Of a stretch of 44,716 nucleotides of DNA, positions 33,001-36,000 are shown piece after piece. Source of the stretch: Escherichia coli. GTDB lineage: Bacteria; Pseudomonadota; Gammaproteobacteria; Enterobacterales; Enterobacteriaceae. Each line of letters begins with the position of its first letter. Positions within the stretch are counted from its first letter, which is position 1. The DNA lies in the NCBI RefSeq assembly GCF_048403405.1, contig NZ_CP183137.1. One strand, given 5' to 3'. The position numbers are program-made.

Positions 33001-36000
33001 TTTAGGATGCTGTTTACCCCATTGTTTATCTTGACTGTATCGTCCTGAAAGTTCGTCAGGACAGGGAGTGTCAGAATACTGACGACCAGCAAAAACTGCT
33101 CTCGCTCTTCTGTTATAATACCACTACGTTACAACTCTGAGATCCCACTATGAAACCTGATGAGAACTCCGTCGATAACAACGATCTGCTGCACAAAATG
33201 ATTACCCGTACGGACAGTTATCTGAATTATGCCAATACAAAATCAACAATCATCATCACCTTTATTACGGCTCTTATTGCTTTTGTCGGTGCGCATGCAG
33301 GTAACGCCATTCATTATCTTAATGAGCAGAACTACCCTGAACTGATCATTATTTTTAAAATATTGCTTCTGATAAATGCTGTGATGCTAATCATCGGATT
33401 TTACCATGCAGGAAAATCAGTTATGCCTTATACACGCCCCAGCGCTAAAAAGAACATTTTCTCCTTCATCGATATCATCCATCATTGCCCTGATGAAATT
33501 ACTTATACACAGAATATTATGTCCATGGACAAGGAAAAACTAGCAGAGTCCATGATTTCATTGCAGTACAATTTATCAGCTGGTCTGGTGAAGAAGTATG
33601 AAATGCACCGGAAAGCCATTTATTCTGTCCTGTTATCACTGATTCCTTTATTTATCTGTCTCCTTATCCTACTATTTGTTTAGGTAATTTCATGAGAAAT
33701 AATTTCAAGGATCTTTTTGGCAAAGCTATATTGGATGTCAATCGCGAACTGATGAAAAGTGAGTTACGGAAATCGTCAATATATGCCGATACACAGAACC
33801 GAATGCTCCATGAGAGTATGAGTGAAAGGTGGCGGAATGATTCTGCTGACGGGTACATTGCCCTCAGCCGTGAATCCATAGCTCAGGATGAAATGCCGGT
33901 TCTTATTAATGACGTAAAACAAGAAATTAGGCGAATATTCGAAAAATATGGCAAAGTAAATGAAACTATTGGTTGTCATCCTGATTTTTCCCATCTGGAA
34001 AACACTCAGAACCAGAGCGATGGTTATGCCATTACTATGTTTTTTGATATTGCCGGCTCAACAAAACTTGGAAAAATCTATGGTCCAAGTACTACATTTA
34101 ATATCAAAAATACGGTAATAAAATACGTGATCGAGATCATTCAAGCATTTGACGGACATGTCCATCGTATTATGGGAGATGCTGTAATGGCTTTTTTTCG
34201 TAGCAACAAAAAAGCACAGTTTGGCAGAGAAATGGACAGTGCTATCGACGCCATTAATGCAGGCATTTATATACTGGAATTTATGGAACAGGTTGTCAGG
34301 CCAGCGCTGGGGGATGCCAGAGCCGAACACCCCATCGGTGTCAGAATAGGCATCGATTATGCGAAAAAGAAAGAGATCGTCTGGGGAAATTATGGCGTCT
34401 CCGGAGCATTTGAAGTCACTGCAACCTCTTATAATGTGGACGTTGCCGCAAAACTGCAACAAGCTGCCGGAACCGATAACATTATGATAGGTGAAAATAT
34501 GAAGGAACTTCTGGGCTTAGGTGATGAATATCTGTCCGTTCCCTTCCGTTATATTAAAGATGAAAACGGTAATGAATTCAGACGTTCCTATCCCTATGTC
34601 CGCCCCAATTACCGTGTCAGGGGAGAACAAATAAATTACAGACAATATCTTCTAGATAACAAGGCATATTTCAGGTTCCTGCCCTATGGCCTCAAGAACA
34701 GTAATATCTGCGTTAGCCTGACCGCAAAACGTGGTGATGTCTGCAATCAATATTTTTGCCCCTGCTCAGAAAGTCTGGATAAAGGAATGTCTCTAACATT
34801 TCATATTACCTACACTGGATCACTACAAAGCTGCCTGACTGTTAAATCTGTCAAACAAAACACTGGCCCCGATGCCCGGGCACATAACGCAACTTCACCG
34901 GTTACCCGAATCAAAGAAATGCAGTATTATAATGGTGCCTGGCATGCGGATGTCAGTGAATCAACAAGGTATCATGGACTTCATCATATGAAACTGACCG
35001 TTCTTGATGAAAAAAATAATGAACTGGATGAAACAGTATTCAGTCTCTATATCAGATAATACTGTTGTCAGTTAATCTGAAACCCAGCTCTGAAAGAGTT
35101 GGGTTTCAGTACATCACAAATACAGTTCCTTTGATTTCACCTAATTATTAAAAAACAAGGAACAACAAAGTATTAAATTTTCCCCCTTCCTCCACACTTA
35201 GGACAGGGAGTGCCAACTCCCAAAGCCGAAATGGAAAGGGATTTTGAGAAATCTTTTTCCTGATACGACTCAAATACTGCTTTTTGTTTTGAAATAGTAA
35301 TCAAGAAATCTTTATGTGCCTCTGAGCGTATATCCCCCCCATTTTTCAATACTTCAGGATGTTCGTGTTCTAGGGCCAATAATAGTTCCTGCATTGCCTT
35401 TTTTGTATTTAAACCTAAATGGGGTCAGTTTGGATATCGAAAATTATTGTACGTTAAGGTTGTTTTTTGACCTTGTCGATCTTAACTGGTCTCAAACGAC
35501 GAAACTTACCTGAAGTCGGTATCCGGTTGTTTTTCCAGATATAATCGCCTGTCAGATTGATATGTTCCCAACCTAATGGTGATAAATGCGATAATAGTTG
35601 AGCATTTATTTTCATGCCCTTACGCTTCAGAGCATCAACAGCTCTTTCCATGTAAACTGTGTTCCATAAGGAAATAGCCGCCGTCAATAAAGTCAATCCA
35701 CTGGCGCGATAACTTTGATTTTCCGGTTTCCGATCTCTAATCTCCCCCAATCGATGCATGAATACAGCACGGGCCAGAGCATTACGGGCTTCTCCTTTGT
35801 TCAGCCCGGCCTGGACACGTCGCCGCAATGCCGGATCACGGAACCAGTCCAGCATAAACAATGTTCGTTCTATACGGCCAATCTCTCTCAGAGCTTTAGC
35901 CAACCCATTTTGTTTGGGGTAACTGGCAAGTTTTCTCAGCATCAGGGATGCTGTCACTGTTCCCTGTTTTATTGAGGTCGCCAGACGTAGCACTTCACGC

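Follow-up and report, generated by a model that had tools for sequence, protein, structure and literature searches.

The two-gene pycTM-pycC cassette of an Escherichia coli IncF plasmid is very probably a standard, already annotated Pycsar module

The EcPycC/EcPycTM pair of Escherichia coli E831 reportedly goes back to Tal et al. 2021 (Cell 184:5728). It serves as the reference Pycsar system with a PycTM effector (PMC11224242, PMC9117128, PMC10118264), and in both E. coli E831 and DS6 (for DS6, PMC13069673) phage resistance by abortive infection depends on the active site of the cyclase and on the effector. TM effectors are used by PycC clades C and E, and the order PycTM first, then PycC, has been called "a typical Pycsar system" (PMC13069673). 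The same work describes the Liu-DS6 "clade F" Pycsar combined with type IV Thoeris and validates this Pycsar against T5. On the enzyme side, biochemical work has established EaPycC of Elizabethkingia anophelis (PDB 8JSF) as a cytidylate cyclase of clade E, in which alanine at any of the positions F100, R142 and Q144 abolished cCMP synthesis; an N-terminal helix of PycC has also been described (PMC11224242). Finally, the AGS-C domain has been reported on PycC enzymes, and on the CD-NTases of CBASS it is suggested, from differences in defence range, to modulate the phages sensed (bioRxiv 10.1101/2023.05.21.541620). As for PycTM, we found no description of its ligand site or pore mechanism in the literature.

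The window analysed here is a stretch of 44,716 nucleotides of E. coli DNA (contig NZ_CP183137.1, assembly GCF_048403405.1), 99.98% identical to the E. coli plasmid pCREC774-3. Two of its genes are very probably a standard, already annotated Pycsar anti-phage module (PycC plus PycTM) on an IncF plasmid, and no new type of defence is involved. The Pycsar identity of the module is already known, the PADLOC HMMs matching full length and RefSeq naming the small gene of pCREC774-3 "Pycsar system effector family protein". Both ORFs and the 8-nt gap between them are exactly as an earlier sequence-only reading had given them, and they lie on the same strand; next to pycC, in the same orientation, stands an effector gene of PycTM type. 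Since the HMM E-values are 4e-110 and 6e-31, chance is excluded for both proteins. The features of the locus are collected in Table 1. Antisense ORFs on the minus strand within the genes (33664-33879, 33776-33994 and 34058-34462) were taken as spurious.

Table 1. Features of the pycTM-pycC locus and its flanks (positions in the window).
Feature	Position	Strand	Basis and remarks
IS91-family transposase pseudogene, left flank	31915..33048	+	ORF calls and annotation; outside the system
Pycsar module	33056..35137	+	Limits from megablast/blastn homology; edges aligned across plasmid copies
Extended -10 promoter-like element TGTTATAAT	33111..33119	+	Read from sequence; 31 nt 5' of pycTM start codon
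pycTM, 177 aa, three-TM Pycsar effector	33150..33683	+	PADLOC, PF18967, hydropathy, family alignment, AF2
pycC, 455 aa, pyrimidine cyclase	33692..35059	+	PADLOC, PDB sequence match, Foldseek, AF2
PycC N-terminal region, residues 1-110	33692..34021	+	Alignment and AF2
Class III-fold cyclase core, residues 111-330	34022..34681	+	Pfam PF00211, residues 115-275; HMMER alignments
AGS-C domain, residues 331-455	34682..35056	+	Pfam PF18134, E 2.2e-6, residues 341-441
Hairpin, 15-bp stem	35077..35109	+	18 nt past pycC stop; without T tract
Tn3-family terminal inverted repeat, 38 bp, right flank	35421..35458	.	Sequence read: GGGGTCAG...ACGTTAAG
Truncated TnEc1-like tnpA	35454-37844	-	Annotation; adjoins the 38-bp inverted repeat

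The module corresponds to a block which recurs at 92-94% nucleotide identity on three further IncF plasmids, each time in an unrelated context, and which includes both the promoter region and the 3' hairpin. It is a self-contained unit of about 2.08 kb, carried by conjugative IncF plasmids. Full-length homologues occur on 28 plasmids. The neighbours of the IncF plasmid copies are TA systems, integrases and transposon debris, and homologues elsewhere are found in the tail-gene region of a P2-like prophage, in a Klebsiella phage and in integrative elements; module and homologues show the mobile-element or defence-island residence expected of Pycsar. The GC content is 37.6% for pycTM, 41.3% for pycC and 40.3% for the module, higher than the 35% or so initially estimated. 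A GC content of 50-60% had been given for the nearby DNA, which holds for the left (IS91) flank (53%) and fails for the right one (37-45%); the window mean is 50.2%.

The larger protein matches the PADLOC PycC model PDLC00764 with an E-value of 4.3e-110 (residues 28-455 against positions 13-449 of 449). Its closest solved relative by sequence is EaPycC (PDB 8jsf; E 2.6e-30, residues 85-322), and a Foldseek search with the AF2 model (pLDDT 84.9, pTM 0.85) returned the same structure as best match (E 3.4e-20, TM 0.78 on target), followed by class III cyclases. PADLOC, Foldseek and Pfam PF00211, the last with a weak match (E 3e-5), thus agree on the class III nucleotide cyclase identity proposed from the sequence, and the four signatures then noted were all located, starting at residues 117 (FFDIAGST), 159 (RIMGDAVMAF), 217 (VRIGIDYA) and 248 (NVDVAAKL). 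No NCBIfam model matches PycC or PycTM.

On either side of the cyclase core, the sequence-only reading had seen residues unique to this protein. In fact, the C-terminus is an AGS-C domain, and residues ~72-114 are conserved family-wide, the alignment with EaPycC beginning at residue 85. The N-terminal region comprises helices, a linker at residues 38-71 that is disordered (pLDDT below 50) and holds the 8-aa length difference of the RHB47 variant, and a conserved segment (R80/F83/K85/G94-H96-P97-F99) which leads into the core. The AGS-C model is beta-rich and Ig-like, with nine beta strands at pLDDT 84-97, and this domain has the lowest dN/dS within PycC (0.11). It is presumed to be a sensor or regulatory domain. 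A C-terminal Ig-like AGS-C domain (PF18134) on the signal-producing enzyme is also the feature shared with the AGS-C-fused CD-NTases of type I CBASS; unlike those, the present enzyme has a class III cyclase fold and not that of a CD-NTase/SMODS nucleotidyltransferase, and its predicted product is a cyclic mononucleotide instead of an oligonucleotide. Indeed, no CD-NTase match was obtained for the module in PADLOC and Pfam, and the signal producer that defines CBASS is thus lacking.

In canonical class III cyclases, purines are specified by a Lys/Asp or a Glu/Cys pair, and an Asn/Arg pair serves the transition state. PycC has neither: in the HMMER alignments, by which residues were mapped onto EaPycC and CyaB (3r5g), the latter places R159 at the purine-specifying Lys position and D250 and K254 at the positions of the transition-state Asn and Arg. 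These replacements bear on the idea of a housekeeping cAMP/cGMP signalling cyclase that happens to lie beside an unrelated membrane-protein gene. The class III fold is present and RefSeq homologues are named "adenylate/guanylate cyclase domain-containing protein"; however, with the strict linkage to PycTM, a residence that takes in plasmids, integrative elements and a P2-like prophage, and a module GC foreign to the surroundings, the probability of such an arrangement is practically negligible.

On the other hand, the metal-binding aspartates D119 and D163 of PycC align with the catalytic D102 and D146 of EaPycC, as expected of a PycC-type class III-fold cyclase, while F117 and R159 align with the CTP-specificity residues F100 and R142. 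The third position of the clade E specificity triad differs, M161 occupying the place of Q144. Residues D119, D163, F117, R159, M161, D250 and K254 are all invariant across a 45-sequence PycC alignment. Overall, PycC shares with EaPycC the catalytic Asp pair, the F and R specificity residues and the PycC-type N-terminal segment, but identity is only 26-29%, and EaPycC is a protein of 342 aa without AGS-C. Compared with PDB representatives, which covered clades A, B, D and E, PycC matches clade E with an E-value of 2.6e-30 and clade B (7R65) with 1.8e-3, and gives no match to clades A (6YII) and D (8JSZ). Because Met161 replaces the third triad residue, we label PycC as closest to clade E and not as a proven member.

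Of the characterised enzymes, EaPycC, a cytidylate cyclase of clade E, is the nearest, which would make 3',5'-cCMP the most likely product; indirectly, the lack of the purine-specifying residues also favours cCMP or cUMP over cAMP or cGMP. Since Met161 is invariant throughout the AGS-C-bearing subfamily, cCMP is nevertheless not secure. Alternatively, the AGS-C/HRIMGD subfamily could make cUMP or another cNMP within an otherwise ordinary Pycsar, with PycTM tuned to match. This possibility, which we consider unlikely but quite conceivable, draws on the replacement, in all 45 homologues, of a Gln needed for cCMP synthesis by EaPycC, and on the fact that clade C, absent from our comparison, uses TM effectors too. 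Against it, PycC retains F117 and R159 out of the three CTP-specificity residues, cCMP is what the reference E. coli Pycsar makes, and the nearest characterised enzyme is by a wide margin a cytidylate cyclase; moreover, PycC showed no UTP-type residue of the kind known from BcPycC.

The smaller protein is matched over its full length by the PADLOC PycTM model (E 5.9e-31, residues 11-176) and in Pfam by PF18967 (PycTM; DUF5706). An identical protein, WP_001420073.1, is listed in RefSeq as "Pycsar system effector family protein", and the exact sequence is present on 60 contigs. The three TM helices predicted early on are borne out by three hydrophobic Kyte-Doolittle segments (28-54, 61-89 and 154-177) and by an all-helical AF2 model (pLDDT 89.4). 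PycTM has no recognisable CNB domain, and a Foldseek search of the model against the PDB produced no significant match (E 0.16 at best, noise from BAR domains). Weaker PADLOC matches were obtained with the "2TM" effector models of CBASS (E 1.7e-17). A Csx28-like pore, considered from weak PADLOC Csx28/tm_HEPN matches (E 0.0025-0.007), was dropped after the Foldseek search. The family alignment reveals three conserved motifs, K16-T33 (KMITRTDxxxNYANTKST), N102-D108 (NxxSFxD) and L138-Y150 (SLQYNLSxGLxxKY), which are assigned to the cytoplasmic juxtamembrane face. A broader proposal would combine a shifted specificity of the AGS-C/"HRIMGD" plasmid PycC subfamily with a cNMP site, unlike a classical CNB, formed by these juxtamembrane motifs and with AGS-C as the phage sensor; we regard this combination as speculative and rather doubtful.

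Cyclase and effector are linked across divergent homologues. At homologue loci of 60, 43, 42 and 38% identity (4/4), the PycTM gene lies directly upstream of pycC, and the effector-first order is also that of the three close plasmid copies (92-94% nucleotide identity). In the neighbourhoods examined, PycTM measures 176-187 aa down to 38% identity. For about 19 homologue pairs the longest contig is identical in size for both proteins, an indirect indication of co-location. E. coli itself harbours at least three PycTM/PycC lineages, namely the present one on plasmids (177/455 aa), one in a P2-like prophage (179/450 aa) and one beside a phage-type integrase gene (176/446 aa); the PycC proteins of the latter two are only ~42-44% identical to the present one.

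These results bear directly on the proposal that the cassette represents an undescribed, non-canonical way of cyclic-nucleotide defence, separate from both Pycsar and CBASS. Its reading of the pair as a defence cassette that works with cyclic nucleotides and by the logic of Pycsar is well supported by the Pycsar-specific HMMs, which match both proteins full-length, but the three arguments for its novelty describe the canonical state of the present Pycsar lineage. A membrane protein too small for a CNB domain is the defining trait of the PycTM family (176-181 aa in 42 of 50 homologues), the effector-first order considered atypical is the usual one, and, as for the extra cyclase domains, AGS-C is known on PycC and the N-terminal part is family-conserved from ~72. 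It is true that the weak Pfam cyclase match can give the system an odd appearance when only the sequence is read, and that PycTM has no solved structural analogue. However, domain layout and gene order are the same throughout the family, the RefSeq Pycsar annotation is already on the gene, and the literature reports exactly such a layout plus the AGS-C fusion, which leaves an undescribed architecture highly improbable. Among the checks suggested along with that proposal, profile HMMs returned PycTM with PF18967 and PycC with PF00211 and PF18134, structure prediction gave a class III cyclase fold and an all-helical membrane protein, and the PycTM-PycC linkage held at all loci examined.

Among known systems, the module, read as an ordinary Pycsar, resembles E. 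coli E831 EcPycC/EcPycTM in its PycC with a small PycTM, two-gene operon, species range and mobile-element residence, a likeness drawn through full-length Pycsar HMM matches. With Liu-DS6 it shares the E. coli origin and the order PycTM then PycC; on the other hand, the DS6 operon comprises five genes, TIR and caspase-like ones among them, and no such genes follow pycC here.

Upstream of pycTM, the extended -10 element (TGnTATAAT) has a weak -35 region and is kept in 4/4 plasmid copies; judged by its pattern, it may act as the promoter of the operon. A consensus promoter scan requiring a -35 hexamer missed it and found no sigma-70 promoter in place. Overall, the consensus promoter and terminator scans gave fewer sites than shuffles, none of them suitably placed. 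Beyond pycC, the hairpin folds as RNA with -28.2 kcal/mol (z = -5.4) and is preserved in other plasmid copies via wobble changes. The terminator scan, which found no intrinsic terminator, did not call it; the hairpin probably marks the end of the transcript or stabilises it. A possible AGG Shine-Dalgarno of pycC overlaps the pycTM stop codon. An Rfam scan of 32500-35600 yielded one sub-threshold chance match only (23 bits versus a gathering score of 100).

The cassette does lie between an IS91-family element and a Tn3-family end, as had been noted. On the left, the IS91 junction at ~33055 leaves 94 bp of conserved DNA upstream of pycTM, TGnTATAAT included. On the right, pycC is followed by the hairpin, a 73-aa ORF on the opposite strand and the Tn3 end, where the 38-bp repeat resembles the Tn3 inverted repeat (GGGGTC...ACGTTAAG). 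The module as passenger of this Tn3-like element was rejected, because the repeat is the outer end of the element and the module lies beyond it, with 283 bp of unrelated DNA between the two. A further possibility is that the pair has been silenced or inactivated and survives as a decaying passenger, caught between IS91 and Tn3 debris and without its former defence function. The pseudogenised transposases around it, and consensus scans devoid of a sigma-70 promoter or intrinsic terminator, would fit such a history; yet both ORFs are full-length for their families with every invariant residue retained, dN/dS is 0.23 for pycTM and for pycC, which means purifying selection, the upstream DNA with its -10 element survives the IS91 junction, and the exact PycTM sequence recurs on many contigs. 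We consider a dead remnant improbable.

The functioning of this Pycsar module can be outlined by analogy with the published systems. Transcription would start at the operon's own extended -10 promoter and reach pycTM before pycC, whose translation may be coupled to that of pycTM. PycC would be a homodimer of class III fold, inactive until phage infection; for its sensing or regulation, AGS-C with its Ig-like fold is the strongest candidate. Once active, D119 and D163 with Mg/Mn would cyclise a pyrimidine NTP, most likely to 3',5'-cCMP. The cNMP may then bind PycTM, with its three TM segments, on the cytoplasmic side next to the membrane, and PycTM would compromise the inner membrane, so that the infected cell would die or arrest before phage release (abortive infection).

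Taken as Pycsar, the locus is a compact, apparently self-promoted module that moves among IncF plasmids, both virulence and resistance ones, in E. coli and Salmonella, and it is relevant to the prediction of phage-therapy host range for a urinary CREC isolate. The Met found throughout a large AGS-C-bearing enterobacterial PycC subfamily, where EaPycC needs Gln for CTP, offers a testable point of pyrimidine selectivity, and the three conserved cytoplasmic motifs of PycTM are candidate mutagenesis targets for nucleotide recognition.

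The two-gene cassette is a known anti-phage system, Pycsar, and was annotated in RefSeq beforehand: its 177-aa protein (WP_001420073.1) is named 'Pycsar system effector family protein' and its 455-aa protein (WP_418507682.1) 'nucleotide-binding domain-containing protein'. The sequence-only reading had proposed a Pycsar-like logic for this pair while holding that it fits no described architecture. Both proteins match the Pycsar HMMs of PADLOC over their full length, which bears out the former view and, together with the RefSeq annotation, overturns the latter. The ORF coordinates of that reading agree exactly with the six-frame ORF list, its four cyclase motifs are all present (residues 117, 159, 217, and 248 of the cyclase, PycC), and its three transmembrane helices in the small protein, PycTM, correspond to hydrophobic segments 28–54, 61–89, and 154–177. 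The two genes have the same orientation and are separated by 8 nt; the pycC ribosome-binding site may be an AGG that overlaps the stop codon of pycTM. Their GC content (pycTM 37.6%, pycC 41.3%) is indeed lower than that of the IS91 remnant to the left (53%) and the window mean (50.2%), but the contrast is smaller than had been stated, the right flank reaching only 37–45%.

PycC matches the PADLOC-DB model PDLC00764 (E 4.3e-110), its residues 28–455 aligning with positions 13–449 of 449. Since this match covers nearly the full model, the 455-aa architecture is standard for the PycC family, including both ends, which had been regarded as unique extra domains; the C-terminal part is Pfam AGS_C. 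Profile search and structure prediction, which the earlier reading had proposed, identified Pfam Guanylate_cyc and a nucleotide cyclase fold, respectively. The AlphaFold2 model (from 45 homologues; pLDDT 84.9, pTM 0.85) has a disordered segment at residues 38–71 and a beta-rich C-terminal domain, and its top Foldseek match among solved structures is 8JSF (E 3.4e-20), with classical class III cyclases ranking next. The same structure is the closest solved relative by sequence (E 2.6e-30, residues 85–322), while the clade B structure 7R65 gave only E 1.8e-3 and the sequence search of solved structures returned no match to clade A (6YII) or clade D (8JSZ). 8JSF is EaPycC of Elizabethkingia anophelis, a clade E PycC whose cCMP product was identified by LC-MS; among PycC clades, cCMP synthesis is confined to clade E, and an N-terminal helix is a hallmark of these enzymes (PMC11224242). 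In our 45-sequence alignment, the segment R80–F99 is kept family-wide.

The active site was mapped by HMMER alignment to EaPycC (PDB chain numbering offset +1), with residue roles taken from PMC11224242. D119 and D163 are the equivalents of the catalytic D102 and D146 of EaPycC. Of its three residues for CTP specificity, F100 and R142 have their counterparts in F117 and R159, and Q144 is replaced by Met161. All five PycC residues are invariant in the 45 homologues (35–74% identity), within the motif HRIMGD in the case of the central ones. Equally invariant are D250 and K254, which we take, from a CyaB alignment, to stand where canonical cyclases have the transition-state Asn and Arg. Judged by these residues, the enzyme is clearly a PycC and not a canonical purine cyclase. 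Its product is probably cCMP, an assignment that falls short of certainty because of the Q-to-M difference at position 161.

Searched against PADLOC-DB, the small protein aligns along its whole length with PycTM models (E 5.9e-31 and 1.2e-29), and its Pfam family is PycTM (PF18967, formerly DUF5706). Its AlphaFold2 model is all-helical (pLDDT 89.4) and resembles no solved structure in Foldseek (best E 0.16). Lysines and arginines cluster at residues 1–27 and 88–155 and are missing from the 55–60 loop; by the positive-inside rule, this distribution places the N-terminus and the 90–153 region in the cytoplasm. The (nearly) invariant residues of the family alignment all fall within the cytoplasmic juxtamembrane stretches K16–T33, N102–D108, and L138–Y150, which may thus be regarded as a candidate signal-binding and gating region. 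According to the literature, how PycTM deforms membranes has yet to be explained biochemically.

Features of the Pycsar module, its products and its flanks
Feature	Position	Strand	Source or remark
IS91-family transposase pseudogene	left neighbour of module	+	RefSeq annotation
Palindrome GTCAG-AATA-CTGAC	33070-33083		small, perfect; about 30 nt upstream of -10 element; conserved in 4/4 copies
Extended -10 element, TGTTATAAT	33111-33119		upstream of pycTM; TGnTATAAT kept in 4/4 copies
pycTM ORF, 177 aa	33150-33683	+	six-frame ORF list
pycC ORF, 455 aa	33692-35059	+	six-frame ORF list
Hairpin, 15-bp stem	35077-35109		-28.2 kcal/mol, z -5.4; no T tract; kept in other copies
73-aa ORF	35173-35394	-	RefSeq hypothetical WP_418507680.1; C-terminal end CPKCGGRGKI
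38-bp terminal inverted repeat	35421-35458		presumably Tn3-type, from resemblance to the Tn3 inverted repeat; adjoins truncated TnEc1-like tnpA
Guanylate_cyc	PycC residues 115-275		Pfam
AGS_C	PycC residues 341-441		Pfam
Long helix into TM1	PycTM residues 5-59		AF2
Helix, TM2	PycTM residues 63-91		AF2
Two short helices	PycTM residues 106-124		AF2
Long helix, end = TM3	PycTM residues 128-176		AF2

Effector-first gene order and a membrane protein too small for a cyclic nucleotide-binding (CNB) domain had been counted as departures from described architectures; both are ordinary in this family. A PycTM (PF18967) gene of 176–187 aa lies directly upstream of pycC, on the same strand, in all the homologue neighbourhoods inspected, at four identity levels: Serratia (60%), Enterobacter/Salmonella/E. 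coli (43%, beside a phage-type integrase gene), E. coli (42%, within a P2-like prophage between tail genes S and V), and P. aeruginosa (38%). Linkage of the pair extends down to 38% PycC identity. Gene order is also unchanged in three more IncF plasmids carrying the module at 92–94% nucleotide identity, and 'a transmembrane protein (PycTM) and a cyclase (PycC)', so ordered, is described as 'a typical Pycsar system', with transmembrane effectors in clades C and E (PMC13069673). As to size, 42 of 50 PycTM homologues measure 176–181 aa (37 exactly 177 aa), besides six short fragments or variants, four longer proteins (215–217 aa), and a single one of 168 aa; PF18967 is found in all 50 except three short fragments. 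PycTM proteins normally have no classical CNB domain. For about 19 homologues, the longest contig has the same size as that of a PycC homologue, an indirect sign of co-location.

A second E. coli Pycsar lineage (L009 2451–4353, GCA_044698985.1 contig; PycTM 179 aa, PycC 450 aa, 42% identical) has its insertion site in a prophage, with the P2-type tail genes gpS and gpV on either side, and one PycC of its cluster was found on 445 contigs. A related PycC occurs in the 34-kb genome of Klebsiella phage Kp4852-2 (OK490408.1 19116–20255). In P. aeruginosa (GCA_053284225.1 and GCA_020180255.1; L010/L011 2450–4317), a PycTM gene accompanies an AGS-C-type PycC gene; this PycC is 38% identical to that of the window, and the pair is present on at least 24 contigs. 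According to PMC12489823, neither a cytidylyl cyclase nor a PycTM-type effector had been detected in P. aeruginosa.

Homology with the other plasmids spans 33055/33056 to 35137 and stops sharply at either end, in contexts that differ widely (ccdAB, vapBC, integrases, replication genes); these abrupt limits define a unit of ~2.08 kb. It retains 94 bp upstream of pycTM, where the palindrome could be an operator. With dN/dS against the Salmonella copy of 0.23 for each gene, and 0.11 for the AGS-C part, the module is intact and, by this measure, under purifying selection. The 73-aa ORF belongs to the 283 bp that separate the right edge of the module (35137) from the Tn3 inverted repeat (35421); it had no match in a PHROG search, and this intervening DNA is missing from the other three plasmid copies. 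A Tn3-family tnpA fragment also lies just downstream of the module in two other plasmids (L003/L004 8185–8827; 75% identical to window 35858–36500, in opposite orientation). Tn3-family debris beside the Pycsar module is a recurrent association.

The whole window is 99.98% identical to the reverse complement of pCREC774-3 (NZ_CP183144.1), an IncFII-type plasmid of E. coli strain 774 from human urine, Taiwan. Further cargo of this plasmid comprises an F4/K88-like fimbrial operon, genes for an S6-family autotransporter peptidase and Fiu/YbiX, and abundant IS debris. At about 7000–31000 (- strand relative to the plasmid record), an EAL-domain gene is embedded in the fimbrial operon, accompanied by the S6-family (SPATE-like) peptidase gene, 4.1 kb long, def with a truncated fmt, and the fiu-ybiX pair, which is of chromosomal type. 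The strongly AT-rich segment 30600–31200 (27–28% GC, marked skews), between a PapB/FocB-type fimbrial regulator gene and an IS91 accessory ORF, is presumably a fimbrial regulatory region. At about 39200–39905, beside a partial IS91-family transposase, there is a perfect tandem duplication (unit ~352 bp), seen as two off-diagonal 355-bp self-matches of 100% identity when the window was aligned to the plasmid record by BLAST. A PycTM of identical sequence is recorded on 60 contigs. Several GenBank entries of the 90% cluster of pycC annotate a 340-aa cyclase, in keeping with a start at Met116. Translation from there would omit the family-conserved N-terminal 115 residues (33692–34036) and leave the catalytic FxD at the extreme N-terminus; these are probably mis-called starts.

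This analysis established which families the two proteins belong to, the fold, the catalytic residues, the gene linkage, and purifying selection. To these can be added a scheme whose product, activation step, membrane damage, and phenotype are drawn from published work on E. coli E831, DS6, and EaPycC. Phage infection would switch on PycC through an unspecified cue, with AGS-C as candidate sensor or regulator; active PycC would synthesise a cyclic mononucleotide with a pyrimidine base (most probably cCMP), and the response of PycTM would compromise the inner membrane, leading to abortive infection. The remaining value of this system lies in the Met for Gln at a reported specificity position and in the ligand site of PycTM.
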